A stretch of DNA of 64,000 nucleotides from the IMG/VR virus record IMGVR_UViG_3300027969_000045; one strand, written 5' to 3'. Of this stretch, positions 3,311 through 52,070 are shown piece by piece (position 1 is the first letter of the stretch; each line of letters starts with the position of its first letter). The DNA comes from a virus. The notes beneath the pieces were generated by a model. The model was not told the origin of the DNA, made no database searches, and saw only the letters and a program-made list of their open reading frames with translations. The position numbers and the translations under genes were made by a program.

Positions 3311-3565
3311 ATGTTAAAGGTTAGATGTAAAAATTGTAATGCTGTGTTGGAGTCTCATCCGACACAGACCAGATGTTGTGGTTGTGATAATTTCACAACT
3401 TTAAGAGGAGAAAATATCTCTGGATTAGATTTAACACGAATAGAATTAATTTCAAATTTTCGTGGTGAATCTAATTCAACAACACTTCTTACACAAGAAG
3501 ATATTGCTTATCACGAAGCAAGACGAAACCGCAAAATTAGAAAAATGGAGTTTGAAATTAGATGA
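3311..3565 (+). CDS. Cys-rich (putative Zn-binding) cyanophage hypothetical protein
   Basis: CKNC...CCGC motif; ATG 3311 preferred to TTG 3284. Confidence 0.65.
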   Translation: MLKVRCKNCNAVLESHPTQTRCCGCDNFTTLRGENISGLDLTRIELISNFRGESNSTTLLTQEDIAYHEARRNRKIRKMEFEIR

Positions 3566-3720
3566 GTTGGGAATCCCCAAAACTTTCAAAAAGAGATATT
3601 GAACTACTTACAGTCACTCTTGATGATTATATTTTTTATGCCAAAAACGATGGTGGCCCTGATACGGGAGAAGTTGAAAGATTTCTTCATAGATTAGAAG
3701 ATCATTTAAATAAGTTTTGA
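3562..3720 (+). CDS. Hypothetical protein, 52 aa
   Basis: Manually translated (MSWESPKLSKRDIELL...); ATGA overlap with the previous gene. Confidence 0.55.
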   Translation: MSWESPKLSKRDIELLTVTLDDYIFYAKNDGGPDTGEVERFLHRLEDHLNKF

Positions 3721-3781
3721 TTTCAACATAGTTATAGATTTTAACATTTATAACTATTAGTATCCTCTTGATACAAAATAA

Positions 3782-3931
3782 ATGGATCAACACACCTATG
3801 ATAATTGGATTAAGATCAAAGAAACTTTTGAAAAATCCGGCAATACCAATAATATGTTTTATAGACGTGCTTGTGAAATTATAAAATCAAAAAAAGACCC
3901 ATTAGCAAAATATCTTGGTGATGAAAAATGA
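3782..3931 (+). CDS. Small cyanophage/cyanobacterial-type hypothetical protein, 49 aa
   Basis: Manually translated (MDQHTYDNWIKIKETFEKSGNTNNMFYRRAC...). Confidence 0.6.
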   Translation: MDQHTYDNWIKIKETFEKSGNTNNMFYRRACEIIKSKKDPLAKYLGDEK

Positions 3932-4071
3932 ATTATGATGATATTGAAAAATTGATTGATAAAAAAATTCAACAGCACGAATTTAGAATTGGTATTATTA
4001 GTGGAATTTTGGGATCCCTATTTGTATTTGGAATTATTCACGCAATTTGGTTAATCAAAGAAAGCATATAA
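3928..4071 (+). CDS. Small membrane protein, 47 aa
   Basis: Manually translated; C-terminal transmembrane helix; ATGA overlap. Confidence 0.5.
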   Translation: MNYDDIEKLIDKKIQQHEFRIGIISGILGSLFVFGIIHAIWLIKESI

Positions 4072-4077
4072 ATTCTC

Positions 4078-4106
4078 TTGACAGATCAACAGATTTTTGG
4101 TATGAT
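4078..4106 (+). promoter_or_regulatory. Sigma70-type early promoter
   Basis: TTGACA-17 nt-TATGAT with extended -10 TG. Confidence 0.8.
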
Positions 4107-4131
4107 TAATTCACACAACTTAAATATGATT

Positions 4132-4314
4132 ATGGAAACTTTTACAATTGAAGAATTTCAAGAAGATTTTGATAATCTTTTAGGAAGAGTTGAGACTGGT
4201 GAATCTTTTGTAATTACTAGTGAATATGGAAATGCTGTTCTTATTCCATATGCTGAATACAAAGAAGTAAATGAATTTGTAAAATGTTTATGTGATCACG
4301 ACGACGGTTGTTGA
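4132..4314 (+). CDS. Phd/YefM-like antitoxin-domain protein (no adjacent toxin)
   Basis: METFTIEEFQEDFDNLLGRVETGESFVITSEYGNAVLIP follows the Phd/YefM pattern. Confidence 0.65.
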   Translation: METFTIEEFQEDFDNLLGRVETGESFVITSEYGNAVLIPYAEYKEVNEFVKCLCDHDDGC

Positions 4315-4330
4315 TTCTTTCTGATGATAC

Positions 4331-4402
4331 GGTTCTGTCGCCTATTGGTTAAGGCCGACACCTTATAAGTGTCTGAACGGAGTTCAATTCTCTGCAGAAC
4401 CA
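4331..4402 (+). tRNA. tRNA-Ile (UAU anticodon)
   Basis: GGTTCTG/CAGAACC acceptor stem; GACAC-CT-TAT-AA-GTGTC anticodon arm; CGGAG-TTCAATT-CTCTG T-arm. Confidence 0.9.
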
Positions 4403-4434
4403 CTATTAATAATATTAAAATTATCTTATTTTTT

Positions 4435-4905
4435 ATGGGGAAAAAACCTACGTGGAACGACAACGAATTGATTGATGCAGTATCTAAATGTAAAAGTTTT
4501 AGTCAAGTTGCATTTTATTTAAATATGTCCAAATCTACCAATTCATTGTTAAAAAAAAGAGCAAATGAATTGGGATTAGATTATACGCATTTTAAAATTT
4601 CAGGATATGATGCAAAACCTATTGCTGAAATATTAATTTATGCAAATGAAGACATAAAGGGAACTCATAAGTTAAAAATAAGATTAATTAAAGAAAAATA
4701 TTTTGATCATAAATGTTATAATTGTGGTATAACAGAATGGAATGGTAAACCAACTCCTATAGAACTGGAACATATTAACGGAGACAGGTGTAATAATAGA
4801 TTGGAAAATCTAACCATATTATGTCCAAATTGCCACGCACAAACCCCAACTTATAGGGGAAAAAATATTAAGTTAAAAAGAATAGCAACATATTTACCAG
4901 ATTAA
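4435..4905 (+). CDS. HNH endonuclease, putative free-standing homing endonuclease in the tRNA locus
   Basis: CYNC...ELEHINGDRCNNRLENLTILCPNCHAQT; start at ATG 4435 because the longer ORF overlaps the tRNA. Confidence 0.9.
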   Translation: MGKKPTWNDNELIDAVSKCKSFSQVAFYLNMSKSTNSLLKKRANELGLDYTHFKISGYDAKPIAEILIYANEDIKGTHKLKIRLIKEKYFDHKCYNCGITEWNGKPTPIELEHINGDRCNNRLENLTILCPNCHAQTPTYRGKNIKLKRIATYLPD

Positions 4906-4939
4906 GGCCTTTGGCAGGGTTCGATACCCTGGGCGACTA
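4903..4939 (+). pseudogene. Orphan tRNA 3' half
   Basis: TAA-GGCCT-TTGG-CAGGG-TTCGATA-CCCTG-GGCGACT-A: end of anticodon loop, T-arm and 3' acceptor strand, with no matching 5' half nearby. Confidence 0.65.
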
Positions 4940-4953
4940 TTACTAAATATAAC

Positions 4954-4978
4954 GAGAGAGTTTATTACTCTCTTTTTT
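4954..4978 (+). terminator. Probable rho-independent terminator
   Basis: GAGAGAGT...ACTCTCTT plus T-run. Confidence 0.6.
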
Positions 4979-5001
4979 AATATAATATTGTAAAATTTTT
5001 T

Positions 5002-5502
5002 ATGAAAATTGGTTTTAATTGTAGTTCATTTGATTTGTTTCACGCTGGGCACGTTACTATGCTTAAAATGGAAAAAGAATTATGCGATTACTTAAAAGTT
5101 GCACTTCAAGTTGATCCGACCGTAGATCGTCCTGGCATTAAAAATAAACCAGTACAATCTGCTTACGAACGTTATGTTCAACTTCAAGGATGCAAGTATG
5201 TTGATGAAATCCTTGTTTATGAAACAGAAGAAGATCTTCTTAATTTAATTCAATCCCAAACAATTCATATAAGATTTTTGAGTGAAGAATATAAAGATAG
5301 AGATTTTACTGGTAAGCAATATTGTATTGATAATGGTATAGAATTATTCTTTCATTTAAGAAGGCACAAATATTCTTCAACTGAAATTAGAACTAGAGTT
5401 CATCATCTTGAAGAACAAAAAAGAATAAAAAAATTAGAAGAAAATGTAATAGAACAATATTCCCCAGAAATTTTAGAAAAATATTCTTTTAAAGATAATT
5501 AA
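5002..5502 (+). CDS. Cytidylyltransferase (TagD/glycerol-3-phosphate cytidylyltransferase-like)
   Basis: FDLFHAGH (HxGH), KYVDE and SSTEIR motifs. Confidence 0.85.
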   Translation: MKIGFNCSSFDLFHAGHVTMLKMEKELCDYLKVALQVDPTVDRPGIKNKPVQSAYERYVQLQGCKYVDEILVYETEEDLLNLIQSQTIHIRFLSEEYKDRDFTGKQYCIDNGIELFFHLRRHKYSSTEIRTRVHHLEEQKRIKKLEENVIEQYSPEILEKYSFKDN

Positions 5503-5504
5503 CT

Positions 5505-6425
5505 ATGACAATTTTAGTGACTGGTGGGTGTGGATTTATTGGCAGTAATTTTATTCACCATTTAAAAAAGAGAACAAGTGAAAAAATCATTTGTATTGAT
5601 AAAATGACTTATGCTGCTGATTATGGAAATATTTCAAATTTAGATATTGAATTATATCCACTTGATATTAATAATTCGGATTATGTATTTAAAGAAAATA
5701 AAATTAAAACCGTCTATCATTTTGCTGCGGAAAGTCACGTAGATAATTCAATTAAAAGTTGCTCCGAATTTATCAATACTAATATTAATGGAACAGTCAA
5801 TCTTTTGAATCTTTCTATGAAATATAATGTTGAGAAGTTTATTCATATTTCTACGGATGAAGTTTATGGTTCAATTGAACACGGTAAATTTACGGAGACA
5901 ACAACATATAATCCAAGAAATCCATATTCAGCATCAAAAGCTGCAAGTGATCATTTTGTGATGGCTTACCATAATACTTACGGTCTTCCTGCTATCATTA
6001 CAAATTGTTCAAATAACTATGGACCAAGACAGCACGAAGAAAAATTAATTCCAAAGACAATTAAAAATTTAATGATGGGGAATAAAGTTCCTATCTATGG
6101 TGATGGGCAACAAATTCGTGATTGGTTATATGTTCAAGACCATTGTGAGGCAATTTTAGTTGTGGCAGAAAAAGGAAAGTTTGGTGAAAAATATAATATT
6201 GGTGGAGAATGTGAAGTCAAAAATCTTGATTTGATAAAAAATATTCTTAATATTATGAAAAAAGACGAAGATATGATAGAATATGTGAAGGACCGTCCAG
6301 GGCACGACCGTAGATATTCAACTGATATTACTAAAATACAAACTGAACTTGGTTGGTCTCCTAGATTTAATTTAGAACAAGGATTGGAAAAAACCATTGA
6401 ATGGTATAAAAGTCATTTACAATAA
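5505..6425 (+). CDS. rfbB: dTDP-glucose 4,6-dehydratase
   Basis: GGCGFIG, AAESHVD, STDEVYG, YSASK, NCSNNYGP, RDWLYV and DRPGHDRRY motifs. Confidence 0.93.
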   Translation: MTILVTGGCGFIGSNFIHHLKKRTSEKIICIDKMTYAADYGNISNLDIELYPLDINNSDYVFKENKIKTVYHFAAESHVDNSIKSCSEFINTNINGTVNLLNLSMKYNVEKFIHISTDEVYGSIEHGKFTETTTYNPRNPYSASKAASDHFVMAYHNTYGLPAIITNCSNNYGPRQHEEKLIPKTIKNLMMGNKVPIYGDGQQIRDWLYVQDHCEAILVVAEKGKFGEKYNIGGECEVKNLDLIKNILNIMKKDEDMIEYVKDRPGHDRRYSTDITKIQTELGWSPRFNLEQGLEKTIEWYKSHLQ

Positions 6426-6473
6426 AGGCATTTTAAACTAAAATACATAGTACATACACTAATAAGTTAATTT

Positions 6474-7520
6474 ATGAGTCAATATAAAAAAACTGCACTT
6501 GTTCTTGGTGCGGGTGGCTTTATTGGAAGTCATATGGTAAAACGATTGAGATCCGAAGGATATTGGGTCACCGGAGTAGATGTTAAACTCCCAGAATATT
6601 CTAAAAGTGAAGCAAATGAATTCATCCTTGGAGATTTGACAAATCAATTATTTACTGATAAAGTAATAATGTTTAAAGGATATCAACAAAACTTTTATAA
6701 ATTTGTCCCATCCAAATACATATCAGCATTTGATGAAATATATCAATTTGCCGCTGATATGGGAGGTGCTGGATATATTTTTACTGGAGAAAACGATGCT
6801 GATGTGATGAACAATTCTTGTTCTATCAATTTGAATATTCTTCGCTCGGTTAAAAATTTAAATGACAATCTTGGCGTGAATAAAACAAAAATATTTTATT
6901 CGTCATCAGCGTGTATGTATCCAGAGCACAATCAATTAGATCCTAATAATCCAAACTGCCGTGAAGAATCTGCTTATCCCGCTAGCCCAGACTCTGAATA
7001 TGGATGGGAAAAACTTTTTTCAGAACGTCTTTACTTTGCGTACAATAGGAATTATAATATACCTGTGCGTGTATGTCGCTACCATAACATCTTTGGCCCC
7101 GAAGGGACCTGGAAAGGCGGAAAAGAAAAATCCCCAGCAGCAATTTGTCGCAAAGTAGCAGAACTTCCTGATCTTGGTGGATCCATTGAAGTTTGGGGTG
7201 ATGGGGAGCAAACTCGTTCGTTCCTTTATATCAATGAATGTATTGAAGCGACACGAAGATTGATGGAATCTGATTTTATGGGACCAGTCAATATTGGATC
7301 TGAAGAGATGGTAACAATCAATCAACTTGTGGATATTACTGCTAAAGTTTCCAGCAAAACAGTACAGAAAAGATATAAATTGGATGCTCCCCTTGGTGTC
7401 CGTGGTCGTAATTCTAATAATGACTTAATTCGTAAAGAACTCGGTTGGGATTATAGTATGACTTTAGAAGAGGGTATTACAAAAACTTACAAATGGATTG
7501 AGGAACAATTAAATGGTTGA
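6474..7520 (+). CDS. GDP-mannose 3,5-epimerase-like NAD-dependent epimerase
   Basis: GAGGFIG, AADMGGAGYI, SSACMYP, YGWEK, PAAICRK, WGDGEQTRSF and GVRGRNS motifs. Confidence 0.85.
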   Translation: MSQYKKTALVLGAGGFIGSHMVKRLRSEGYWVTGVDVKLPEYSKSEANEFILGDLTNQLFTDKVIMFKGYQQNFYKFVPSKYISAFDEIYQFAADMGGAGYIFTGENDADVMNNSCSINLNILRSVKNLNDNLGVNKTKIFYSSSACMYPEHNQLDPNNPNCREESAYPASPDSEYGWEKLFSERLYFAYNRNYNIPVRVCRYHNIFGPEGTWKGGKEKSPAAICRKVAELPDLGGSIEVWGDGEQTRSFLYINECIEATRRLMESDFMGPVNIGSEEMVTINQLVDITAKVSSKTVQKRYKLDAPLGVRGRNSNNDLIRKELGWDYSMTLEEGITKTYKWIEEQLNG

Positions 7521-8166
7521 AAATTTTTCTTGGAGTGATAATAGAAGAGAAGATTGGAGAGATTATGTCCGTTCTTTGGAAAATGATAATATAAGTGAAA
7601 TTCTTGGAGCAATTCCATCAGGATGGAATGTACCACCAAAAAGTCATAATGAATTTGTGATTTGGTTGATGAATAGAATTGATCCAAAATTAACTGTAGA
7701 ACTTGGAGTTGATTGGGGATATTCATCTTTTATGCTTGCTTTGAATACAAAAAATGAGGTTGTTGGTATTGATTGTTTTGATATTTCAAAACATAGTTTA
7801 AGAAAAGATGATGACTATCAATTTGTTATGGACATAAAAGAAAAACTAAAACTTGATAACTTAGAAATTATTAAAGGATATTTTGACGATGTAGCAAAAA
7901 CTTGGAATAAAGAAATCAATCTTCTTCATATTGATGGTCTTCACGATTATAATAATTGTAAAAATGATTGCGATACCTGGGCGCCATTTTTGGAAGAAAG
8001 AGGTGTAGTATTATTCCACGATACTATTTCAAATCCAGATGGAGTTGGACTTTTCTTTTCTCAACTTGAACTTCCAAAAGTGAATTTTACCAATTCTTGT
8101 GGATTGGGTGTTGCTTCAAATGATGTTAAATTGATTGAAGAAATTAAACAAGTTTTTAAACTATGA
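7513..8166 (+). CDS. Class I SAM-dependent methyltransferase (Methyltransf_24-like)
   Basis: VELGVDWGYS, LHIDGLH and LFHDT motifs. Confidence 0.85.
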   Translation: MVENFSWSDNRREDWRDYVRSLENDNISEILGAIPSGWNVPPKSHNEFVIWLMNRIDPKLTVELGVDWGYSSFMLALNTKNEVVGIDCFDISKHSLRKDDDYQFVMDIKEKLKLDNLEIIKGYFDDVAKTWNKEINLLHIDGLHDYNNCKNDCDTWAPFLEERGVVLFHDTISNPDGVGLFFSQLELPKVNFTNSCGLGVASNDVKLIEEIKQVFKL

Positions 8167-8699
8167 TTAAACTTATAATCCTTGATGTGGATGGTGTTCT
8201 TACTGATGGCACCAAATATTATGATCATGATGGGAAAGTAGTTCTTAAACTTTTCTGTGATAAGGATTGGACTGCAATTAAAAGGTTTCGTGCTATTGGA
8301 ATTCCAGTTGTTTTTATAACTGGCGATCCTTATAATGAGATCATTCTTAAGAATAGAAATCTCCCTGTTGTAGTGAATCGTGGCGAAGGATTTCATAAAG
8401 ACAAAGTAAATTATCTTGCAGAAGTTCTTGATGATTACAATTGTCTTGTAGAAGAAGTTGTTTATCTTGGAGATGATCTTTTTGATTATGGTATAATGAG
8501 AGAGGTTGGATATCCTTATTGTGTGTTAAATTCACCAAGAACTCTTCAAGACATTTCTGTAGTTCTTCACTGTAATGGTGGAGAAAATGCAGTGATGTGT
8601 TTGTTTGAATATCTGGAGGATAGAGAATTGATTCCGGTTGTTCCTTATGATGAGGTAATGTCTAAAATTTATGAACTTGACTTGAAGGAAAACTTTTAA
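8163..8699 (+). CDS. KdsC-like HAD phosphatase
   Basis: IILDVDGVLTDG and YLGDDLFD motifs. Confidence 0.85.
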   Translation: MIKLIILDVDGVLTDGTKYYDHDGKVVLKLFCDKDWTAIKRFRAIGIPVVFITGDPYNEIILKNRNLPVVVNRGEGFHKDKVNYLAEVLDDYNCLVEEVVYLGDDLFDYGIMREVGYPYCVLNSPRTLQDISVVLHCNGGENAVMCLFEYLEDRELIPVVPYDEVMSKIYELDLKENF

Positions 8700-9370
8700 T
8701 GAAAGACATTTCTCTTTATGGGCATCTGACTATTGATACGATTCTTGACGGTAATTCTGAAAAGAAAAGTTTAGGATCAATGGCAAATGTTTGGAGATCT
8801 TTACTTGAGATTGATTCAACATTAAATATTGGACTTTCTCCAATTGATGTTGGTCAAGCACTTGTTTATATTGATAAACTTTCAGCACAAAGGTATTCAA
8901 AAGCAAATTTAAATCTAGTTCAACACAAAGTAAAAATCTTCGAATCAAAAGTTCACCATCTAATTTATCTCAATGAAATGTCTATTCATGATTTTATTCC
9001 AAAACTGAATGGTATTATCACTGCAGATATATGTTCTGGAAAATCATTGAATAAAGATTTACTTAAGGGTGTAGATTATCTTTTTATTTCTGATGAAGAT
9101 ATTGATGGCAATCTTTCAGATTACGTGAATACAATAAAGGGGTATGTGATACTTCATAGTTCATCAGGAAGCATTGTATCAAATGGAAAAGATGAGTTTT
9201 TCTATAAACTGCCTAAAGATTTAATACTGAAAGGTGTTAATGTTCTTGGTGCTGGTGATACATTTGCGTCTTGTTTCTTATATAAATTACTAAGGAATGA
9301 AGGAAGCATCCACAACTGGATCGAATTTGCTCATTTAAAGACAACTGAAATTATTAGGAATTCGATATGA
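8699..9370 (+). CDS. PfkB/ribokinase-family carbohydrate kinase (short, lacking the lid)
   Basis: NVLGAGDTF signature; N-terminal G-x-x-x-x-D. Confidence 0.8.
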   Translation: MKDISLYGHLTIDTILDGNSEKKSLGSMANVWRSLLEIDSTLNIGLSPIDVGQALVYIDKLSAQRYSKANLNLVQHKVKIFESKVHHLIYLNEMSIHDFIPKLNGIITADICSGKSLNKDLLKGVDYLFISDEDIDGNLSDYVNTIKGYVILHSSSGSIVSNGKDEFFYKLPKDLILKGVNVLGAGDTFASCFLYKLLRNEGSIHNWIEFAHLKTTEIIRNSI

Positions 9371-10524
9371 AACCAAATATTCTTGTTCCGATGGCGGGAC
9401 TTGGTAGTAGATTTATTAAAGAAGGATTTAAAGTACCAAAGCAGTTAATTAATATCAAAGACAAACATCTAATTGATATTTCGCTTGATTGTTTGAACTA
9501 TGAAGATTGTAATCTAATCTTCGTGGTTAGGGATGAAACTGTTTATAATTTTCATATTGATGAACTCCTAAAGAAAAAGTTTGGTGAAGATATCAAGATT
9601 GTTATTATTGATAAACTTACTGATGGATCTGTGAGCAGTTGTCTGTATGCAGAAGAATATATTGATAATGATGCGCCTCTTGTAATTCATACTCTAGATA
9701 TTGAATTCCGTCCAGTATTTGATCCGCATACTATTAATAACTTGAATGCAGATGGACTCCTTTTGACATTTAAATCAAATTCTGCAAATTATAGTTATGC
9801 TGATGTTAATGAAGATGGATATGTAAAAAGAACTGCTGAAAAGAAAGCAATTAGTTCTAATGCCTGTGTTGGTATCTATGGATTCAAAAAAGGATCCGAC
9901 TTCTGCAAGTATGCAAAGGAAATGATCGAAAGAGATATTAGAACTAATAATGAGTTTTATATTGCACCTTTGTATAATCTTCTTATTGATGATTGTAAGA
10001 AAATCGTTACTTCGGATGTAGATAAAATGCATGTATTTGGAACTCCTGATGAGTTTCATTTCTACAAAGAAAATGTCATTCGTAAGGTTGGTGATAAACC
10101 AATTGCTATTTGCTCAGACCATTCTGGATTTGAATCAAAGGAAAAGTTTAAACATATTCTAGAAAAACACAATCTTGAGTATATTGATTTTGGAACTATC
10201 TTGAATAAGGATTGTGATTATAGTGATTATATTGCACAAGCAGTTAAAGCAATTGCTGAGCGTGATTGTGATTATGGATTTGGTTTCTGTAGAACAGGTC
10301 AAGGTGTGAATATTTGTGCTAACAAATACAAAGGTATTCGTTCAGCACTTATCTATGATGATTTCTCTATGGAGATGGCAATCCGACATAATTGTGCTAA
10401 CTTTTTTGCAATTCCTGCAAAAGATTATACTATCGAAAAAATGGATAAGTATTTGGAAATCTGTTCTACTCATAACTTTGATGGCGGTCGTCATCAGGTT
10501 CGTATTCAGGAATTAGAAAAATGA
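9367..10524 (+). CDS. Sugar-phosphate nucleotidyltransferase fused to an RpiB/LacAB isomerase
   Basis: N-terminal PMAGLGSRF..PK..EK..GTP; C-terminal SDHSG, CRTGQG, ANK, RHN and FDGGRH RpiB motifs. Confidence 0.88.
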   Translation: MKPNILVPMAGLGSRFIKEGFKVPKQLINIKDKHLIDISLDCLNYEDCNLIFVVRDETVYNFHIDELLKKKFGEDIKIVIIDKLTDGSVSSCLYAEEYIDNDAPLVIHTLDIEFRPVFDPHTINNLNADGLLLTFKSNSANYSYADVNEDGYVKRTAEKKAISSNACVGIYGFKKGSDFCKYAKEMIERDIRTNNEFYIAPLYNLLIDDCKKIVTSDVDKMHVFGTPDEFHFYKENVIRKVGDKPIAICSDHSGFESKEKFKHILEKHNLEYIDFGTILNKDCDYSDYIAQAVKAIAERDCDYGFGFCRTGQGVNICANKYKGIRSALIYDDFSMEMAIRHNCANFFAIPAKDYTIEKMDKYLEICSTHNFDGGRHQVRIQELEK

Positions 10525-10841
10525 TTCAAGCAAATATTGTTGACTTTAAAGCAGGATGGTTTGTTGGGGACTTTGAACCATCTATTTTTAAGAATCCATT
10601 TTTTGAAGTTGCACACCATTCTCACACAAAAGGTCAACAAACTTTTCCTCATTACCATGCAGTCACTAATGAACTTAACTACATTGTAAAAGGTGAACTA
10701 ATAGTATCTGGAAAGCATTTGAATGCAGGTAATATGTGGATCTATGAACCAAAGGAAATTTCTGATGTTGAGTTCTTGAGTGATGTTGATCTTATAGTAG
10801 TGAGATGGCCGTCTATTCCTTCGGATAAGTATATGGTATGA
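10521..10841 (+). CDS. Cupin-domain protein
   Basis: GWFVGDF, HYH...ELNYIVKG. Confidence 0.75.
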   Translation: MIQANIVDFKAGWFVGDFEPSIFKNPFFEVAHHSHTKGQQTFPHYHAVTNELNYIVKGELIVSGKHLNAGNMWIYEPKEISDVEFLSDVDLIVVRWPSIPSDKYMV

Positions 10842-11305
10842 AACTGATAGCACATAGAGGTAATATTGTAGGACCTAATCCTCTAGAGGAGAATAAACTA
10901 GAATACATTGAAGCAGCAATTGCAGGTGGATATGATGTTGAGATTGATGTAAGATGGGAAGATCATCAGTTTTATTTGGGACATGATGGACCACAATATT
11001 ATGTCCCTATGACTTGGTTAGTTAAAAGAAAAGATAAACTTTGGATTCATTGTAAAGATTTTAAATCTTTGAATATTTTTTCTAATAGTCCAATAGATTT
11101 TAACTTTTTTTGGCATGAAAACGATAAGTATACTTTGACTAGTAAAGGTTATATTTGGACTTATCCTGGGCAATTATTTGAAAATAATTCTGTTATTGTA
11201 ATGCCAGAAGTATTCGACTTGCAAAATATTCAAGATAATGGTACAATAGCATACAGCAAAAAATCTTTTGCTGTATGTAGTGACTATGTGGAAAAATTTA
11301 AATGA
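10838..11305 (+). CDS. Short glycerophosphodiester phosphodiesterase-like protein
   Basis: IAHRGN, EN, VEIDV, LGHD, HCK and CSD motifs. Confidence 0.8.
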   Translation: MKLIAHRGNIVGPNPLEENKLEYIEAAIAGGYDVEIDVRWEDHQFYLGHDGPQYYVPMTWLVKRKDKLWIHCKDFKSLNIFSNSPIDFNFFWHENDKYTLTSKGYIWTYPGQLFENNSVIVMPEVFDLQNIQDNGTIAYSKKSFAVCSDYVEKFK

Positions 11306-11913
11306 CATCTACGATTTCCCCAGTATTTAAAGAATTAAAACAATATGATAAAATTAATGTTATAGATGTTGGATCTGCAAGAGCATCTTTTTTGGTAGAA
11401 TTGGAAAAATCCTTTGATCTAAAAAATGTTTATTCTATAGGAATTGATCCAATTGATTATGGAGTAGAATCTCATTATGATAAGTTTTATCGTGTTTGTC
11501 TGGATGACGTTAAAACTCCTCAAAAGCAAATATTTTATAACGATGATCAATCCTCTTCGCTGCTTTCTTCCAAAGGTGAAAAAATGGGCTTGGTTGACAT
11601 TTTAAATATCAATAGCATTATCGATGTTGATATACCAGAAAATATTATACATTTTATTAAAATAGATGCAGAAGGAAAGGATTTGTCTATTGTAAAATCT
11701 TTATCAAAACAAAATTTAAATAGAACAAAATTTATTGCAATAGAATGTCCAAATAAAATTCCAAGATATGATGGCGAATATATTAAAAAAGATTGTATTG
11801 AATATTTTAATTCTATAAATTTTGAATTTTTTTATGAATACGATACTAATATTGAATCTTGGAACAAATCAGATTTGAGTGATGTCGTTTTTATAAACAA
11901 ACGAGAATTATGA
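11302..11913 (+). CDS. FkbM-family methyltransferase
   Basis: IDVGSA and FIKIDAEG motifs. Confidence 0.75.
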   Translation: MTSTISPVFKELKQYDKINVIDVGSARASFLVELEKSFDLKNVYSIGIDPIDYGVESHYDKFYRVCLDDVKTPQKQIFYNDDQSSSLLSSKGEKMGLVDILNINSIIDVDIPENIIHFIKIDAEGKDLSIVKSLSKQNLNRTKFIAIECPNKIPRYDGEYIKKDCIEYFNSINFEFFYEYDTNIESWNKSDLSDVVFINKREL

Positions 11914-12650
11914 AAGTAGCATTATGTTTATCCGGTCAACCAAGAGTAGTTGACATTGGGTTTCAAAAACTAAGCCAATCAATTCTTCAGCACAATGATG
12001 TTGATGTGTTTATTCATACTTGGTTTGATCCTGAAAATCTTAGTACAAATTCTGTCATTCCTGGCAGAGAATCTCATAGGTTAGATCCTCAAGCAATTGA
12101 TAAATTGATTCATTATTATCAACCAAAACGCATTATGGTTGAAAAACCAAAAAAGTGGTCAAAAAGATATGAGTTTCCTGATAAGGTTTTTACACATTCG
12201 CATACTTGGGCACTTGAAGTTCCTGTAGGATTGGAAGCGGCAAAAGATTATATTTGTGATACTACAAATAGTATGTTTTATAGTATTATGATGTCAAATC
12301 TTTTGAAGGAGCAATATTCAACAGAAATCGGAATTGAATATGATTTAGTAATTCGAAATAGAATTGACTATTCTCCTCATGTAGTGCTAAAATTGAATGA
12401 GATTCCAATAGATGATTGTACACTAATATATCAAGATCTATATCAACCTGATGGTATGATTAGTGATTGGTTTGGTATGGGATCAACAAACACTATGAAT
12501 GTTTTTTGTGGCGTATATAATCAAATAGGTCATCTCATCCGACAATCAAATGAAGTTGATGGATATTGGTGCAATGAACTTCTTCTTAAACATCATATCA
12601 AAAATAATAAAATTAAAACAAATCCTATAGACTATCAAGTTCACTATTAA
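11910..12650 (+). CDS. Putative glycosyltransferase-like protein (ALCLSGQPR family)
   Basis: [21 protein letters not shown] and YDLVIRxRxD; sits in the glycan island. Confidence 0.6.
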
Positions 12651-12651
12651 C

Positions 12652-13677
12652 ATGAAGAAAGCACTTATTACTGGCATTACTGGTCAAGATGGATCATATC
12701 TTGCGGATTTACTTTTGAGCAAAGGATATGAAGTTCATGGAATTATTCGTAGAAATTCAACATCAGATTGTACTGATAGAATTAATTATCTTTTAGGAAA
12801 TCCCAAAATCACTTTACATTACGGAGATCTAACTGATTTCTCAAATATTACATCTATCATTCAAGAAACTCGTCCTGATGAGATCTATAATCTTGCAGCA
12901 CAAAGTCATGTAAAAGTATCTTTTTCCAATGCACTTTATACTGCTGATGTAGATGCTTTAGGTGTTTGTCGTATTCTTGAAGCACTACGAATTCTTGGCA
13001 TGATTAATACGACCAAGTTTTATCAGGCAAGCACTTCAGAAATGTATGGTCTTGTTCAAGAAATTCCTCAACGTGAAGGTACAAAATTTCATCCAAGATC
13101 TCCTTATGGTGTGGCAAAACTTTATGCTTATTGGATTACTAAAAACTATCGTGAAGCATATGGTTTGTTTGGATGTAACGGAATTCTTTTTAATCATGAA
13201 AGTCCTCGTCGCGGAGAAACTTTTGTGACTCGTAAGATTACTAAAACTCTTGCAGAGATCAAGAATGGTAAACGTAGTCTACCATTAGAACTTGGTAATA
13301 TAGACGCAAAACGTGATTGGGGTCATGCAAAAGATTATGTGGAGGCAATGTGGTTAATACTTCAACGTAATAAACCAGATGATTATGTTGTTGCAATGGG
13401 TGAACAGCATTCTGTTCGTGAATTTGTTGAGATTGCCTGTGAACATTTTGGATTTGATATTGAATGGAAAGGAGAGGGAATAGAGGAGGTGGCAGTCTTT
13501 AGAAATACAAATAATGTTCTTATAAAAATTAATTCAGAATTTTATCGTCCTGCTGAAGTTGATTCTCTTGTTGGTGATTCTAGTTATACTAAAAGCAGAA
13601 TTGGTTGGATTCCCAGATACTCTTTTTCTGATCTTGTAACGGAAATGTGCGATAGTGATTTGGAGGCAACAAAGTGA
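12652..13677 (+). CDS. gmd: GDP-mannose 4,6-dehydratase
   Basis: [45 protein letters not shown] and RDWGHA motifs. Confidence 0.95.
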
Positions 13678-14603
13678 AGAAAAGGATTGTATTTTGGGTA
13701 GAAAATAAACCATATCAAACTTTTTCTTACATCTATGCTGGAATGAAAAAAGCATTTGAAAGATTGGGTTGTGAAACATATTGGTTTAGTGATTCTAATT
13801 ATCCTTCAAAATTGGAGTTTGATTACTCGGATTGTATTTTTTTTGTAGATAATCAAGGTCCACTTGATTGGAATGTTCCTATTATTGATAGTGGAATTTA
13901 TTTTTCTTATGATAAATTTACAAATCTGGATAAGTATCTTGATAAGGTCAAGTGTCTTGTGAATTATCGAGTTGCTGAATTCAAAAAACCAATTCCGGAT
14001 AATGATAGGTATATTGAAGTTGAAAAAGGAGTTACTTTTGATACTCAAGCACCAGAACCTTATAATGTTGTTTATTTTAGTTGGGCAACTAATTTGCTTC
14101 CTGATGAAATTGATTTTGATTGGGCCAATAAACAGAGAAATGATGAATATAATTTTGTTGGTACTATTCATTCTCCCCGTCCAAATTCCAAACCCCTTCA
14201 TCAAGATTTTATTGATATTGTAAAAAATAAAAATATTACATTCAATCATTATAATCCTAATATTAATCCTGCAACTGATCAGGAACATATTGAGATTCTT
14301 CAAAAATCGATGTTTGTTCCAGATTTTAGACCACAAGAACAAAAAGATAATTGGTATGTTTCATGTCGTGTTTTGAAGGCAATTAGTTATGGTTGTCTTA
14401 CTGTTTCGGATTCTTCTTATCTTAAACACTTTATTGATGATAGTCTTTTGGTTTCTGAAAATGCTCAAGAAATATTTGATCTTGGAATGAGAAATCAGTA
14501 TAATAAAGATTTAATTGTACATCAAATGGAAATTATAAAAAGAGATCATACTTATTTAAATAGGTGCAAAGGTATTCTTCAAATCGTAGAAAATATAAAA
14601 TGA
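13674..14603 (+). CDS. Putative GT-B glycosyltransferase
   Basis: FVGT, R-x-x-x-AISYG and C-terminal HTYLNR motifs, typical of CgeB-like GTs. Confidence 0.6.
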
Positions 14604-15457
14604 AAATTACAATTTTAGGTTCCAGTGGACAGATCGGTGCCTATCTTACCGAGTATCTGCGTAAAAAAGGACATGTAGTTGAAGAGTTTGATGTAGTTAA
14701 TGGACCTTCACAGGATATGACCGTAATTCCTAATCAATATCTTGAAATAAAAATTAGAGATTCTGATTTTGTATTCTTCCTTGCATTTGATGTGGGTGGA
14801 TCACGTTATCTTAAAAAGTATCAACATACTTTCCAGTTCATTGATAATAATACTCGTTTGATGGCAAATGCTTTTGGATTTCTTCAAAAGTATAATAAGA
14901 GGTTCATCTTTGCCTCATCTCAGATGAGTAACATGAGTTATTCTCCTTATGGAGTTCTCAAGAACGTTGGTGAACTGTATACCAAATCACTTAAAGGACT
15001 GATCGTTAAGTTTTGGAATGTTTATGGTATTGAGAAAGATCAAGAAAAAGCACACGTCATCACAGACTTTATTCGTAAAGGATTTGAGACTGGTTTGATT
15101 GATATGCTTACTGATGGCGAAGAGGAACGTGAGTTTCTTTATGCTGAAGATTGTTGTGAAGCACTTGAAACCATTATGGAGAATTATACTGACTTTACCT
15201 CAGAAGATAATCTTCATATTACTAGTTACCATCCAACTAAGATTATTGATATTGCAAATATGATTATTGGGCAATTTAATTTGATTGGTAAGTATGATAT
15301 AAAACTTCAACCATCTACCGAAAAAGATAGTGTTCAGATGGATAAAAAGAATCGTCCAGATTTATATCTTTCTAAGTGGTGGATTCCCAAAACAACAATA
15401 GATCAAGGAATTTCAAAAGTTTTTAAAAGTATGGAGAAAAATTATGTTAGCGTGTAA
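14600..15457 (+). CDS. NAD-dependent epimerase/dehydratase
   Basis: GSSGQIG, YGVLK, NVYG and REFLY; start at ATG 14600. Confidence 0.85.
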   Translation: MKITILGSSGQIGAYLTEYLRKKGHVVEEFDVVNGPSQDMTVIPNQYLEIKIRDSDFVFFLAFDVGGSRYLKKYQHTFQFIDNNTRLMANAFGFLQKYNKRFIFASSQMSNMSYSPYGVLKNVGELYTKSLKGLIVKFWNVYGIEKDQEKAHVITDFIRKGFETGLIDMLTDGEEEREFLYAEDCCEALETIMENYTDFTSEDNLHITSYHPTKIIDIANMIIGQFNLIGKYDIKLQPSTEKDSVQMDKKNRPDLYLSKWWIPKTTIDQGISKVFKSMEKNYVSV

Positions 15458-16286
15458 TCAACTTGGCAATAATGGAAGACTTGGGAATCAAATGTTCCAA
15501 TATGCTGCACTAAAAGGTATCGCACATCGTAGAGGATTTGATTATTGTATTCCCCCATTTGACCAACAAGGAATTGATAATTATGGACTTGGTGATGCCT
15601 TTAATATTAAATCTTTTACTGGTATAGCAAATCTTCCATCAGTTGGAGAACCTCATTTTCATTACAGTGAAGAATTTCACAATACTTGTCCAGATGATGT
15701 TACTCTTGTTGGATATTTCCAAACTGAAAAATATTTCAAAGATATTGAAGACCAAATCCGCCAAGACTTTATTTTTAGAGATGAATGGATGGAACCCTGT
15801 AAGGGGTTTCTTCAAGAGTTTGAGGGACAAGAGATCGCTTTCCTTCATGTTCGCCGTGGAGATCCAAATCTAGTGGATCGTAGGGGATTTAAATGGGCAT
15901 ACGTGAATTGTTCCGATCAACATCCAGTTCAATCTTTGGAATATTATGAGGAGGCAATCAAGAGATTGCCAGAAGATATGCCGATACTTGTTTTTTCTGA
16001 TTCAATTGAATGGTGTAAAGAACAAGAATTCTTTCAACCAGATAGATTTTTATTTTCGGAATCAGAAGACAAATATTCAGATGGCGCTTTGGTTCCATAT
16101 GTTGATTTGTGCTTGATGTCCTTGTGTGATCATGCTATAATTGCTAATAGTAGTATGAGTTGGTGGGGTGCTTGGTTGATGAAAAATCCAAACAAAAAAG
16201 TAATCGCACCAAAAATGTGGTTTGGAACAGCATATTCTCACCACATCACAAAAGACATTTACTGCGATAATTGGGAGATTATTTGA
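15444..16286 (+). CDS. Alpha-1,2-fucosyltransferase-like protein (GT11)
   Basis: GRLGNQMFQYA, GYFQ, HVRRGD, FSD and NSSMSWWGAW motifs. Confidence 0.92.
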   Translation: MLACNQLGNNGRLGNQMFQYAALKGIAHRRGFDYCIPPFDQQGIDNYGLGDAFNIKSFTGIANLPSVGEPHFHYSEEFHNTCPDDVTLVGYFQTEKYFKDIEDQIRQDFIFRDEWMEPCKGFLQEFEGQEIAFLHVRRGDPNLVDRRGFKWAYVNCSDQHPVQSLEYYEEAIKRLPEDMPILVFSDSIEWCKEQEFFQPDRFLFSESEDKYSDGALVPYVDLCLMSLCDHAIIANSSMSWWGAWLMKNPNKKVIAPKMWFGTAYSHHITKDIYCDNWEII

Positions 16287-17113
16287 TGATTTATATTTCT
16301 GGGTCTAATGGATTGATCGGAACAGAACTGACAAAAAATATTCAAAACTATATTCCAATCTCTTATAGGAATCAATATCCAGAAATAAATTTTTTATCGA
16401 ATTCTACATTGATTCATTTATCTTCATCAACCACTCCTAGAAATAGTTTTGGTGAATTGCAATCATCATTTAATAGTGATGTTTTGATTCCTTTTGAATT
16501 GTTTCAAAATTATTTAAAAGTAAATTCAAATGGAAGAATTATTTTTCTTTCTACTGCTGGGGATTTACATAGTTCTGAATTTGATGTTTGGTCTAATGAA
16601 GAATCAGAACCTATTCCAAAGTCAATTTATGGCGCACATAAATTACTTTTAGAACATTGTACAAAGTTACTTCATAGTCAATATGATTTTACGAGTATAG
16701 TTTTAAGAACTACAAATGTTTATGGTGGAAAGATTGACCCAAAAAGAGTGAATGGATTGATTGATAAATTGATTTCAAATAATAATGAAATCGTAATAAC
16801 ATCAAATATTAAAACGACAGTTAATTTTATTCATATTAGTGATTTGATTAGTTTAATTTTGCAATCATTGGATGCGAATCTTAAAGGATTTAATTTATTT
16901 TTGGTTGGCAGTGAAAAATCCATTTCTATTCAGGATTTGATTGAAAAAATATCATCATATATTTCTCCAAATATTGTATTTAAAAATGAGAATTCAAATC
17001 CCTCATACATAAACATAGACACCTCAAAGGTGCAAAAATATCTCAATTGGAAATGCAAATATTCAATTGATAGTGGTATAATTAAACAAGTACAATCTTT
17101 GAATTCTTTATGA
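16286..17113 (+). CDS. NAD-dependent epimerase/reductase (extended SDR)
   Basis: GSNGLIG, YGAHK, NVYG and FIHISD motifs. Confidence 0.8.
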   Translation: MIYISGSNGLIGTELTKNIQNYIPISYRNQYPEINFLSNSTLIHLSSSTTPRNSFGELQSSFNSDVLIPFELFQNYLKVNSNGRIIFLSTAGDLHSSEFDVWSNEESEPIPKSIYGAHKLLLEHCTKLLHSQYDFTSIVLRTTNVYGGKIDPKRVNGLIDKLISNNNEIVITSNIKTTVNFIHISDLISLILQSLDANLKGFNLFLVGSEKSISIQDLIEKISSYISPNIVFKNENSNPSYINIDTSKVQKYLNWKCKYSIDSGIIKQVQSLNSL

Positions 17114-17829
17114 AAATTGCTATTTCATTTTTTGGGACAGGAAGTTATTTGAATTTTCTTCCTAATTGGTATACGTCCATTCATGATAATTTTCTTCCAG
17201 GTGTAGAAAAAAAGTTTATTGTATTTACAGATGGAGAGGGTGATTTTCCAGAAGATGTTACTAAAATAGAAATAGAACATTTTGGGTGGCCTGATGTTTT
17301 TTACAAAACATTTGAAACAATCTTGAAAGCAAAAGAAATTATTTCTGAATGCGATTGGTTTATTTCTATTGATGCGGATATGATTGTTAATGGCAAAGTA
17401 TCTATTGAAGAATTTATTGATGAAACCAAAGATTATATTGGAGTTCATCATCCTTGTGCTTATTTAAAACTTCCACCACACGACAAATATCCAGGATCTT
17501 TTGATGTAAATCCACTATCAAATGCTTACATCACCGAAGATATGGATACTTCTGTTTATTATCAAGGATGTTTATGGGGTGGAAAGGTTCCTGAAATTAT
17601 TGAAATGATGGAACTTTTAGATGAATGGACAAAGAAAGATATTGAAAAGAATTCTACTCCCGTTTGGTATGAAGAATCTTATTTTAATAAGTTTTTTATT
17701 ACAAACAAAGAAAGAGTACATACACTTCCTCCGTCATTTGCTTATCCAGAAGACTTTAAACAATATTGCGATTTTGAAGAAAAAATCACACATATCTCTA
17801 AAAATAATCAACAATATCATAATCAATGA
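17110..17829 (+). CDS. GT6-family glycosyltransferase (ABO/alpha-1,3-Gal(NAc)T-like)
   Basis: GTGSY, FTD, WP, DAD, HP, YYQGCLWGG and W-x-EES-x-x-NKF motifs. Confidence 0.88.
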   Translation: MKIAISFFGTGSYLNFLPNWYTSIHDNFLPGVEKKFIVFTDGEGDFPEDVTKIEIEHFGWPDVFYKTFETILKAKEIISECDWFISIDADMIVNGKVSIEEFIDETKDYIGVHHPCAYLKLPPHDKYPGSFDVNPLSNAYITEDMDTSVYYQGCLWGGKVPEIIEMMELLDEWTKKDIEKNSTPVWYEESYFNKFFITNKERVHTLPPSFAYPEDFKQYCDFEEKITHISKNNQQYHNQ

Positions 17830-18608
17830 CTATGACTAAAAATTTATCAGTTTATTATCATATCTGGAGTCCTGGCGGAACGGATCTTTGGAAATTGATG
17901 GTAGACGAACAACTTAAAAGAATTTATCGCAATGGACTTACGGAAAGTGCTTCTATCTATTGCGCTATTAATGGACCACAAGCAAACCGAATTGCAGAAT
18001 ATATCTCCATCTATGATTGGTTAAATGTTCTTGATGTTTCAATTGATGAAAGTGAGTATGAAGGATTCACTTTAAAGAGAGCATACGAAGAGGCACATTT
18101 CAATCCAGATTTGAAAGCAGTTGCTTATCTTCATACAAAAGGCATTAGTCATATGTGTGGAGTTCGGGATCATTACTCTGATCGTAAGTTTAGAGCAGTG
18201 AATAGTTGGAGACATCAAATGGAATGGGGCATTCTTGATCGGTGGAAAGAAGCGGTAGAAAAACTTGACGAATATCAAGTTTCTGGTGTAAATTATTGTT
18301 TGGATCCTTGGCCTCATATGAGTGGAAACTTTTGGTGGGCACGGGCGGATTATCTTAAAACTTTAATTCATCCCACTAGAGATAGATTTCCAAATGACAA
18401 TAGAGATTTTGGACCAATTCAAAGAATGAATTTTGAAAAATGGATTGGACTGAATAATCCAAAATCTTTCAGTTTTTACGATGCTCCATTTAGTTATGAT
18501 TTTAAAGGAATGACACCAGATGTACAACCAACACCCCCAGGAGAACCGCATTGGTTCTGGTTGTACCGAGACGACATTGAACCCTATTATAGAAAGGAAG
18601 GTAACTGA
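17826..18608 (+). CDS. Putative glycosyltransferase-like protein (YLHTKG family)
   Basis: YEGFTL, YLHTKG, SGNFWWARADY and EKWIG; context in the glycan island. Confidence 0.55.
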   Translation: MTMTKNLSVYYHIWSPGGTDLWKLMVDEQLKRIYRNGLTESASIYCAINGPQANRIAEYISIYDWLNVLDVSIDESEYEGFTLKRAYEEAHFNPDLKAVAYLHTKGISHMCGVRDHYSDRKFRAVNSWRHQMEWGILDRWKEAVEKLDEYQVSGVNYCLDPWPHMSGNFWWARADYLKTLIHPTRDRFPNDNRDFGPIQRMNFEKWIGLNNPKSFSFYDAPFSYDFKGMTPDVQPTPPGEPHWFWLYRDDIEPYYRKEGN

Positions 18609-18609
18609 T

Positions 18610-19332
18610 ATGACTTTTGGATGCTTTCATACAGTGTATGAAAATAAAAGAGCAACAGAGTTTATTTTGCAAGAGTTTAGAAAATATTATCCAGATGCTC
18701 CTTATACTTTGATTTGTGATGGTGGAGTAGATTACTCTGATCTTGCTGTAAAGTACAATTGTAAATATATTCATTCGTATATGCATATTGGCAGAAGAAA
18801 TTCTGGGGATCCTTCTGGAATTTATGGATTCACAAAGGATGAAAGTCTTCATTGGATTCATATGTTTAGGGAGGCAGCAAGACACGTTAAAGAAAATGGT
18901 GGAACACATATGATTATGATGGAAGATGATGTTCTCACTCAAGGTGAAGTGAAAATTAATCCAATTTGGGAATGTGCTGGATTTGATGTTCCGGGAAATA
19001 AAATTTCTCCTGGTCTTTTGAAGTTTATTGAAGAAAAGTATAATGCAAAACCAAATGTTGATTGGTATGGTGCTGGTGGCGGAACCATTTATAATATTGA
19101 AACATTTTTAGATAACTATCATAAAATCTATGATTTTATTGATTTTGATTTTGAAAATATTCTAGAAAATATGGATTATAGATTTGGTTGGTTGGATCTT
19201 TATATGCAAATTGCTTATTTTGTAATTGGTAAACATTATTCAATTAATACAAATTTAACTGAAGTTTGGAAAACACCAAACTTTAGGGATAGTGAATTTA
19301 CTCTTGTTCATGCTTATAAGGAATTATACTGA
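18610..19332 (+). CDS. Putative GT-A fold glycosyltransferase
   Basis: CDGG, MEDDV and GGG motifs; start at ATG 18610. Confidence 0.6.
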   Translation: MTFGCFHTVYENKRATEFILQEFRKYYPDAPYTLICDGGVDYSDLAVKYNCKYIHSYMHIGRRNSGDPSGIYGFTKDESLHWIHMFREAARHVKENGGTHMIMMEDDVLTQGEVKINPIWECAGFDVPGNKISPGLLKFIEEKYNAKPNVDWYGAGGGTIYNIETFLDNYHKIYDFIDFDFENILENMDYRFGWLDLYMQIAYFVIGKHYSINTNLTEVWKTPNFRDSEFTLVHAYKELY

Positions 19333-52062: not shown

Positions 52063-52070
52063 ATACTAAA

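Follow-up and report, generated by a model that had tools for sequence, protein, structure and literature searches.

A five-gene cassette with a nucleotidyltransferase–RpiB fusion in a T4-like cyanophage as a candidate nucleotide-sugar pathway

What might a cyanophage make with five overlapping genes, one of which joins a nucleotidyltransferase to a complete RpiB-type isomerase? The question is raised by IMG/VR record IMGVR_UViG_3300027969_000045, from which a stretch of 64,000 nucleotides (the window) was analyzed; its source is a T4-like lake cyanophage with psbA at 22879–23958, and the G+C content of the window is ~31%. Five plus-strand open reading frames (ORFs) make up the cassette at 8163–11305, and their junctions are ATGA overlaps, plus one TAATG. 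In order they encode a HAD-IIIA phosphatase of the KdsC/KDN-9-P phosphatase type (8163–8699, 178 aa; TIGR01670 and PDB KdsC matches), a short PfkB/ribokinase-family kinase (8699–9370, 223 aa; Pfam PfkB), the nucleotidyltransferase–RpiB fusion (9367–10524, 385 aa; a single ORF with two Pfam domains), a small single-domain metal cupin (10521–10841, 106 aa; fold and metal motif) and a trimmed version of the glycerophosphodiester-phosphodiesterase (GDPD) fold without a signal peptide, the mini-GDPD (10838–11305, 155 aa; fold and signature residues). An earlier note on this DNA had described five coupled genes that included an in-frame fusion of this kind, and the ORFs, overlaps and domain matches agree with that description. 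Our answer, to which we attach a probability of roughly 0.6, is that the five genes would act as a single cytoplasmic unit that converts a central sugar phosphate into a nucleotide-activated sugar.

The five genes were found together well beyond the window. A scan of IMG/VR identified 134 relatives of the fusion, 80 of which were examined, and 89 loci were compared in all, based on the rule that the presence of a gene was counted only where the flanking sequence sufficed. The genes recur in the same order in 80 IMG/VR contigs, in two cultured cyanophages and in contigs of metagenome-assembled genomes (MAGs), and the partners of the fusion were near-universal: the HAD phosphatase was present in 76/77 loci, the kinase in 79/82, the cupin in 81/82 and the fifth, GDPD-like gene in 47/52. 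Other neighbors were variable, including a short-chain dehydrogenase/reductase (SDR) resembling GDP-mannose-3,5-epimerase (GME; 24/56), a DUF7796-like protein (37/69) and methyltransferases (<25%). The gene order was kept down to 25–50% protein identity (L005–L007), among loci that range from 99% to ~25%, and also in contigs of 69–71% G+C; in the Synechococcus phages Bellamy and SynMITS9220M01 the cassette is syntenic with that of the window at ~76% nucleotide identity. Because the same five genes recur in order across contigs, their grouping is far beyond chance, and the expectation of the earlier note that the set would co-occur elsewhere was borne out by the shared order across the 89 loci. 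In addition, all five genes are under purifying selection, with median ratios of nonsynonymous to synonymous substitution (dN/dS) against orthologs of 0.20 for the HAD phosphatase, 0.14 for the kinase, 0.08 for the fusion, 0.11 for the cupin and 0.30 for the mini-GDPD.

Within the fusion, Pfam recognizes NTP_transferase at residues 10–176 and LacAB_rpiB at residues 246–383 (2.1e-34). The score of the nucleotidyltransferase domain (residues 1–240; 9367–10086) for NTP_transferase (PF00483) is marginal, at 22.0 bits against a cutoff of 21.2, and is accompanied by weak IspD and NTP_transf_3 matches. Its profile, however, matches PDB 4evw at 8e-40, followed by mannose-1-phosphate guanylyltransferases (6e-12), the HddC-like entries 5xhw/6jq8 (4e-11) and RmlA, all within 6e-12 to 1e-9, and then, more weakly, by inositol-1-phosphate cytidylyltransferase (9e-8) and LicC (2e-5). 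Residues G11, R15, K25, D111 and E196 are invariant, and the G-x-G-x-R loop, the Lys and the metal-binding Asp are present. The nucleotidyltransferase half thus belongs to the sugar-1-phosphate class, in a subfamily of its own that is typified by 4evw. That structure is a structural-genomics entry, and the sole citing paper that we found concerns the prediction of crystallization.

The RpiB half (residues 245–385; 10099–10521) scored 118.9 bits against a cutoff of 24.7 for PF02502, over profile positions 1–138 of 138, and its best PDB E-value was to T. maritima RpiB (1.7e-25). In the alignment with that protein it retains the catalytic Cys with a Thr/Ser two residues on, the Asp-His and His-Asn pairs and the phosphate-binding Arg...Arg. 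Residues D251, H252, C308, H341, R375 and R379 were invariant, and both halves of the fusion were retained, in 34 full-length relatives of 34–47% identity. The C-terminal half is therefore predicted to be a complete and catalytically intact aldose–ketose sugar-phosphate isomerase of the RpiB/LacAB type. It did not reach the cutoff of the RpiB equivalog model TIGR01120 (107.5 bits versus 138.65), so ribose-5-phosphate cannot be assumed to be its substrate from the sequence alone. The fusion family is sizeable, with 1421 proteins at E<=0.001 (90% clusters) and 395 representatives at E<=1e-30 (50% clusters). Elsewhere, members of this nucleotidyltransferase family are joined to HAD_2 domains of the phosphatase/mutase type, and in phage S-CAM9 the family also lies near a beta-phosphoglucomutase-like HAD protein; both arrangements fit a scheme that leads from an omega-phosphate through a 1-phosphate to a nucleoside diphosphate (NDP)-sugar. 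In GenBank the fusion is labeled 'phosphatase' in both Bellamy and SynMITS9220M01 (10205–11362 in each locus). A cellular setting of the 4evw family is seen in a Cellulosilyticum MAG (L008, 13–8976). There a stand-alone bacterial relative of the nucleotidyltransferase has an SDR on one side and an LPG_synthase_TM membrane protein on the other, and the locus continues with genes for a HAD_2 phosphatase, three GT2 proteins and a 'Sulfatase' membrane protein of the LtaS type.

The kinase is ~80 aa shorter than usual PfkB members and its Pfam match was just above the gathering score (PF00294, 5.8e-6, 26.3 versus 25.8 bits); its profile matched PDB YdjH at 1.8e-7. Across 21 orthologs G8, D13, N30, N181 and G184-x-G186-D187 are invariant, and the N-terminal G...D and the GAGD loop are both in place. 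The orthologs weakly match models of iolC, fructoselysine kinase and ribose-1-phosphate kinase, the last of these in 11/21 orthologs with a best E of 1.6e-9, and none of the 21 matched the heptose-7-phosphate kinase model (HldE domain I, TIGR02198) at E<=0.01. The kinase of phage S-SM2 matches TIGR02198 at 1e-31 and aligns with that of the window only around GAGD. The HAD protein scored 88.6 bits (3.9e-25) with TIGR01670, the KdsC subfamily model, under the cutoff of 106.95, and 76.7 bits, where 208 is the cutoff, with the KdsC equivalog PRK09484. In the PDB it matched 2p9j (3.7e-19) as well as KdsC chains, its relatives are KdsC and KDN-9-P phosphatases, and all 65 distinct orthologs have the core residues D8, D10, K81 and G103-D104-D105. 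Supported by these matches, it is classified as a putative KdsC-like C0 phosphatase and not KdsC itself. Partners of a KdsA/KdsB kind were also sought: a scan of 30 proteins from the region 875–25410 yielded no DAHP-synthase-type family and no CTP_transf_3 match. A Kdo-type pathway was rejected on these grounds and because the nucleotidyltransferase differs in type from KdsB.

Neither the cupin nor the mini-GDPD gave a Pfam or NCBIfam match, and for both of them orthologs were aligned and structures predicted. The cupin was modeled as a single-domain cupin with a predicted local distance difference test (pLDDT) score of 95, and its H-x-H...E...G metal motif is invariant in the ortholog alignment. 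It shares its fold and metal-binding motif 1 with a small archaeal phosphomannose isomerase (PDB 7zvy/7zvm), and small phosphomannose isomerases were its top fold matches, but these tied with many unrelated cupins. A homologous cupin is encoded by S-SM2, Bellamy (L002) and SynMITS9220M01 (L001) (hhalign 92%, 7.8e-7 to the cassette cupin), and in the modules of all three phages and of a further locus, L003, it lies between a kinase and a nucleotidyltransferase, a position that suggests front-end isomerases. We consider that the cassette cupin would either serve as a second isomerase of sugar phosphates or epimerize the activated sugar. Its likeness to the small cupins in these neighboring modules makes it unlikely to be the counterpart of the heptose 'epimerase'. 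Annotation of such genes is uneven. The SynMITS9220M01 cupin gene (11359–11679) is intact and unannotated; in S-SM2 the gene at 8623–9000 bears the annotation 'cysteine dioxygenase' but encodes a small cupin that is a homolog of the cassette cupin, and two 'phosphoheptose isomerase' annotations (6693–7004 and 8334–8663) match HAD_PNKP weakly, under the curated cutoff, and not an isomerase.

The mini-GDPD folds as a GDPD barrel and retains the active-site residues (His-Arg, Glu-Asn, Glu-x-Asp and His); these signature positions (H6, R7, E18, N19, E35, D37 and H49) are invariant in the ortholog alignment and align to GDPD in the profile search. The profile match to PDB 7e2a reached only 0.059, over residues 3–52, and the protein fell short of the family model PF03009. 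We describe it as a trimmed and probably active cytoplasmic phosphodiesterase. It follows the same nucleotidyltransferase family in three module types, namely the RpiB cassette, the S-CAM9 type (a HAD_2–nucleotidyltransferase fusion, an uncharacterized protein, a beta-PGM-like HAD and GDPD) and the S-SM2/Bellamy type (a nucleotidyltransferase–nucleotidyltransferase fusion, a GT61-like protein, a class II aldolase, a small HAD and GDPD), and so it is tied to the chemistry of the transferase rather than to RpiB. Both the cupin and the mini-GDPD also occur with this nucleotidyltransferase family in two further types of cyanophage module. It may be that the mini-GDPD acts on a by-product or an intermediate of the pathway. 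The module with the double nucleotidyltransferase spans 12430–16519 in Bellamy, 3388–9000 in S-SM2 (L091) and 7962–12033 in L003; the best match of its class II aldolase is L-ribulose-5-phosphate 4-epimerase (1e-16), and in S-SM2 it goes on with a DUF7796-like gene, a second small HAD and the related cupin. This module resembles a sister pathway that differs in its front end. A hidden PfkB kinase in the 242-aa neighbor in S-CAM9 was considered and rejected (hhalign probability 0.3%).

We infer the activities, the order of the steps and the substrate from sequence, and the pathway would then run as follows. The RpiB domain would interconvert a ketose phosphate and an aldose phosphate, with the cupin possibly serving as a second isomerase, in which case the two together would epimerize C2. 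The PfkB kinase would phosphorylate the anomeric hydroxyl (C1) of a sugar omega-phosphate to give a 1,omega-bisphosphate, from which the KdsC-type phosphatase would take off the terminal phosphate, the pair in this way replacing a phosphomutase. The nucleotidyltransferase domain would couple the resulting sugar-1-phosphate to a nucleoside triphosphate, and the NDP-sugar would be used by glycosyltransferases of the surrounding island. The kinase and phosphatase are read as phosphate movers because the nucleotidyltransferase needs an anomeric phosphate and central metabolism gives terminal phosphates.

As to which sugar is made, our leading specific suggestion is a tentative one, namely that ribose-5-phosphate/ribulose-5-phosphate would be converted through arabinose- or ribose-1,5-bisphosphate and the 1-phosphate to an NDP-pentofuranose. 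In such a route the RpiB domain would link ribulose-5-phosphate to ribose-5-phosphate, the cupin would give the C2-epimeric arabinose-5-phosphate from ribulose-5-phosphate, and the mini-GDPD would cleave the ring of the sugar 1,2-cyclic phosphate released from labile furanosyl nucleotides. In favor of a pentose are that the RpiB domain is nearest to true ribose-5-phosphate isomerases and that the kinase looks ribokinase-like, its orthologs matching the ribose-1-phosphate kinase model in 11/21 cases and the heptose-7-phosphate kinase model in none. The top matches of the cupin among small phosphomannose isomerases, and the place of its homolog between a kinase and a nucleotidyltransferase, count on the same side. 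A little more doubtful again is the full proposal that NDP-D-arabinofuranose or NDP-D-ribofuranose is made by enzyme families that are not known from any nucleotide-sugar pathway, with the mini-GDPD as a cyclic-phosphate repair enzyme and the viral rpiB as a glycan gene. Several observations count against this interpretation, in whole or in part. The host has plenty of both ribose-5-phosphate and ribulose-5-phosphate, so that a pentose route would seem not to need an RpiB of its own. KdsC-family enzymes are known for acting on the side-chain terminal phosphates of 8- and 9-carbon sugar acids, which favors a longer sugar than a pentose, and the frequency of Gmd and the GME-like epimerase as neighbors suggests a GDP-hexose or GDP-heptose. 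The family matches of the kinase are weak and far under curated cutoffs, and the anomeric position would be its target only by prediction; the ties among the fold matches of the cupin mean that a fold search cannot assign its function; and the role proposed for the mini-GDPD is a guess.

The surroundings of the cassette bear on the choice of product. Near-gapless genes at 5002–22049 constitute a glycan-synthesis island with terminator-like hairpins at 4954–4974 and 22570–22596, in which sigma-70-type promoter matches were no commoner than in shuffled sequence. On the plus strand and upstream of the cassette is the GME-like SDR (6474–7520; Pfam Epimerase 3.8e-35, NCBIfam GDP-fucose synthase 3e-24 and heptose epimerase 1e-19), which might use the product of the cassette. 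Downstream on the same strand are a DUF7796-like protein (11910–12650; Pfam DUF7796 2.6e-4, under the cutoff, and phrog_13607 7.5e-33), possibly a transferase, with relatives annotated 'capsular polysaccharide biosynthesis', and the GDP-mannose 4,6-dehydratase Gmd (12652–13677; PF16363 1.3e-141), a possible user of the product if this is a GDP-hexose or GDP-heptose. In many loci, among them loci of the distant L056–L075 clade, Gmd (>=44% identity) lies no more than 7 kb from the cassette. The head of the island encodes, also on the plus strand, an HldE-domain-II-like adenylyl/cytidylyltransferase (5002–5502; PF01467 2.4e-12; TIGR02199 6.9e-16 versus 7.2e-10 for the TagD type), which might share the kinase and phosphatase of the cassette. 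The island further holds SDR reductases, Fcl-like reductases and a GT11 protein. Among the island genes scanned we saw no HldE-type kinase, GmhA or GmhB, no canonical ManC or ManB, and no TagF-, LicD- or Stealth-type phosphotransferase.

The alternative that survives best is that the product is an ordinary one, the cassette being a non-orthologous replacement of ManA/ManB/ManC or of GmhA/HddA/GmhB/HddC that supplies GDP-mannose or GDP-manno-heptose to Gmd, the GME-like epimerase, the Fcl-like reductases and GT11, with the cupin as the phosphomannose or sedoheptulose-phosphate isomerase. It is a serious rival, although we judge it to be unlikely, and it accounts for a good deal: Gmd or the GME-like SDR occurs within 7 kb in most loci with enough flank, the distant clade included; the canonical ManC/ManB pair is missing from the island genes scanned; the best characterized relatives of the nucleotidyltransferase after 4evw are mannose-1-phosphate guanylyltransferases and HddC-like enzymes; and the cupin has its top structural matches among small phosphomannose isomerases and a homolog between kinase and nucleotidyltransferase in L001–L003. 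The same reading, however, leaves the RpiB domain, the best-conserved part, without a role, and RpiB-type enzymes (the ribose, allose and galactose members) give the C2 configuration opposite to manno. In SynMITS9220M01 the cassette is present together with an annotated heptose-7-phosphate kinase and phosphoheptose isomerase, and in Bellamy together with an S-SM2-type module, so for the same heptose it would be redundant. Further, L078–L085 carry the cassette with neither Gmd nor GME within 7 kb, and the heptose-7-phosphate kinase model was matched by none of the kinase orthologs.

Less probable still, and in our view improbable, is that the nucleotidyltransferase attaches its nucleotide to the terminal phosphate of a sugar or polyol, for teichoic-acid-like, phosphodiester-linked decorations that the mini-GDPD would edit or recycle. 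There is precedent for such activation in TarI and AbpA, which form CDP-ribitol and CDP-xylulose. The weak IspD and NTP_transf_3 matches beside NTP_transferase would suit it, as would the SDR reductases of the island; the RpiB–nucleotidyltransferase fusion could then catalyze consecutive steps, from ribose-5-phosphate through ribulose-5-phosphate to NDP-ribulose. The GDPD fold is the classic one for cleaving glycerophosphodiesters and teichoic acids, as in spike domains of phages K and phi812, and the bacterial nucleotidyltransferase relative noted above shares its locus with the LtaS-type 'Sulfatase' membrane protein. Against this, the profile groups the nucleotidyltransferase with RmlA, GMPP, HddC and GlmU (1e-12 to 1e-9), ahead of the inositol-1-phosphate cytidylyltransferase and LicC; the conserved pair of kinase and phosphatase would have no role; and the phosphotransferases of the TagF, LicD and Stealth types were not seen in the island genes scanned.

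Very improbable is the reading of the RpiB domain as an auxiliary pentose-phosphate gene that raises ribose-5-phosphate for nucleotide synthesis among unrelated glycan genes, the function proposed when rpiB was found to be enriched in viromes on cyanophage-like scaffolds (Enav et al. 2014, PMC4022391): the catalytic residues are indeed those of ribose-5-phosphate isomerases, but the cyanophage RpiB matches in the phage collection searched were only three records, all with this fusion, RpiB-only matches came from gut, Listeria-sample and other non-cyanophage records, the fusion and its four partners were kept together over deep divergence and in varied genome neighborhoods, and terminator-like hairpins bound the glycan island that holds the cassette. 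Since the only cyanophage RpiB records in that collection hold the fusion, the viral rpiB signal of Enav et al. may be this glycan cassette. The earlier note had also reported CP12 in the window. A plus-strand ORF at 52035–52280, far from the cassette, does end in C-x3-P-x4-C-R-K-Y-E, like the C-terminal Cys pair of CP12, but the canonical AWD-VEEL core was not found in the window, and a link between CP12 and the cassette is speculation.

Returning to the cassette as a whole, its setting differs among distant relatives. In a distant T4-like clade it lies beside gp33, gp59 and gp32 and not in a large island. In L056 (88–5813) and its relatives L069 and L073, the genes 5' of the cassette are Gmd, a 255-aa protein of cytidylyltransferase fold, a 134-aa protein and a WavE-like gene, together with three proteins of ~310–405 aa (two scanned, no Pfam family), and the genes 3' of it are a cell-wall hydrolase, gp33, gp59 and gp32. 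The 255-aa gene was considered as ManC or as a relative of the cassette nucleotidyltransferase and was rejected as either, given its cytidylyltransferase fold; no PDB relative of the adjoining 134-aa protein was found. A scan of GTDB genomes yielded seven MAG contigs, two of which have only a stand-alone nucleotidyltransferase or RpiB. L003 (PCAW01000016.1, a 'Methanobacteriota archaeon' MAG) and L004 (PACT01000001.1, a 'Crocinitomicaceae' MAG) carry the cassette at 83–85% protein identity with a G+C content of 0.33–0.36, and L003 retains a Bellamy-like gene order; the two look like cyanophage contigs that were mis-binned into unrelated genomes. A Holophagaceae MAG (L006, G+C 0.69) has the fifth gene, HAD phosphatase, kinase, fusion and cupin, and a Brocadiaceae bin (L007, G+C 0.71) has the HAD phosphatase, kinase, fusion and cupin on a contig that begins at the HAD gene. 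A WavE-like gene adjoins the cupin in both. We detected no homology between the DUF7796-like and WavE-like neighbors, and a single sixth conserved gene is therefore not claimed.

We regard the cassette as a real, widespread and uncharacterized nucleotide-sugar module. It is common, with hundreds of relatives in viral metagenomes of sea and lake water as well as high-GC versions, and the identity of its product would show which sugar abundant cyanophages add to a glycan during infection, which bears on the purpose of large phage glycan islands that have no flippase. It would also assign functions to 4evw-type nucleotidyltransferases, to the viral mini-GDPD and to the viral mini-cupin, which are now blank or mislabeled in databases, and would change the interpretation of viral rpiB as a gene that boosts the pentose-phosphate pathway for nucleotide synthesis. 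The cassette is present in two cultured phage–host pairs, Bellamy with Synechococcus WH8109 as its host and SynMITS9220M01 with MIT S9220.

In the literature on the fusion, 4evw and cyanophage heptose/lipopolysaccharide genes we found no paper that describes the cassette, and the claim of the earlier note that no characterized pathway has this composition holds for the literature that we searched. The closest parallel in logic is with the NDP-heptose routes (GmhA; HldE or HldA/HldC or HddA/HddC; GmhB; HldD), which employ an isomerase, an anomeric kinase, a terminal HAD phosphatase and a nucleotidyltransferase. The same four enzyme classes are encoded together in the cassette, and none of them is an ortholog of a heptose enzyme. 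Also shared are the PfkB family of the HldE kinase, a fusion (HldE joins two non-consecutive steps) and SDR epimerases nearby. In contrast to the heptose pathways, the isomerase of the cassette is RpiB-type and not a GmhA of the SIS family, the phosphatase is KdsC-type and not GmhB-type, the kinase does not match HldE domain I, the nucleotidyltransferase belongs to its own 4evw subfamily and two conserved genes, the cupin and mini-GDPD, are added; moreover, some phages carry the cassette beside genes annotated or modeled as heptose-pathway enzymes. The type II phosphomannose isomerase/GDP-mannose pyrophosphorylases (AlgA/ManC/XanB) also have a nucleotidyltransferase fused to the isomerase that opens the pathway, with a cupin involved. 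In those enzymes, however, the fused isomerase is itself the cupin and a phosphomutase provides the link, whereas here the fused isomerase is RpiB-type, the 106-aa cupin is separate and a kinase and phosphatase stand in the place of the mutase.

For the individual domains, RpiB/AlsB enzymes (PDB 1o1x, 3he8, 1nn4) share with the fusion the full-length domain and the catalytic residues. Unlike them, the viral domain is always the C-terminal half of a nucleotidyltransferase fusion and in most relatives has Gln in place of a hydrophobic residue in the C-x-T-G-x-G loop. Compared with the GDPDs GlpQ/UgpQ (PDB 1o1z, 1vd6, 7e0v; 220–330 aa), the mini-GDPD has 155 aa, is undetected by Pfam, is predicted to be cytoplasmic and is always linked to one nucleotidyltransferase family; its nearest Atlas clusters are all viral.

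A precedent in phages is the UDP-arabinofuranose route of RB69/DLP3/HY126-type phages, which draws on ribulose-5-phosphate and uses an arabinose-5-phosphate isomerase, the AfhE kinase to form the 1,5-bisphosphate, the HAD phosphatase AfhF and the AfhE nucleotidyltransferase (PMC13326640). Both systems belong to T4-like phages, follow the same step logic and have a nucleotidyltransferase fused to another pathway enzyme. AfhE, like HldE, joins two steps that do not directly follow each other. By the published descriptions of the families, that route has a SIS-type isomerase, a kinase resembling aminoglycoside/choline kinases and, fused to this kinase, a MurU-like nucleotidyltransferase (PMC13326640), whereas the cassette has an RpiB-type isomerase, a PfkB-type kinase and a nucleotidyltransferase fused to the isomerase. 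The UDP-arabinofuranose product decorates DNA bases and its route has no cupin and no GDPD, whereas the cassette sits in a glycan island. The earlier note had presented the cassette as the isomerase–kinase–phosphatase–nucleotidyltransferase logic carried out by different enzyme families. The four classes are present with intact residues, as that proposal requires, but because the same pentose logic is known in other T4-like phages (PMC13326640), what is new in the cassette is its enzyme families and its two extra genes, rather than the logic of the pathway.

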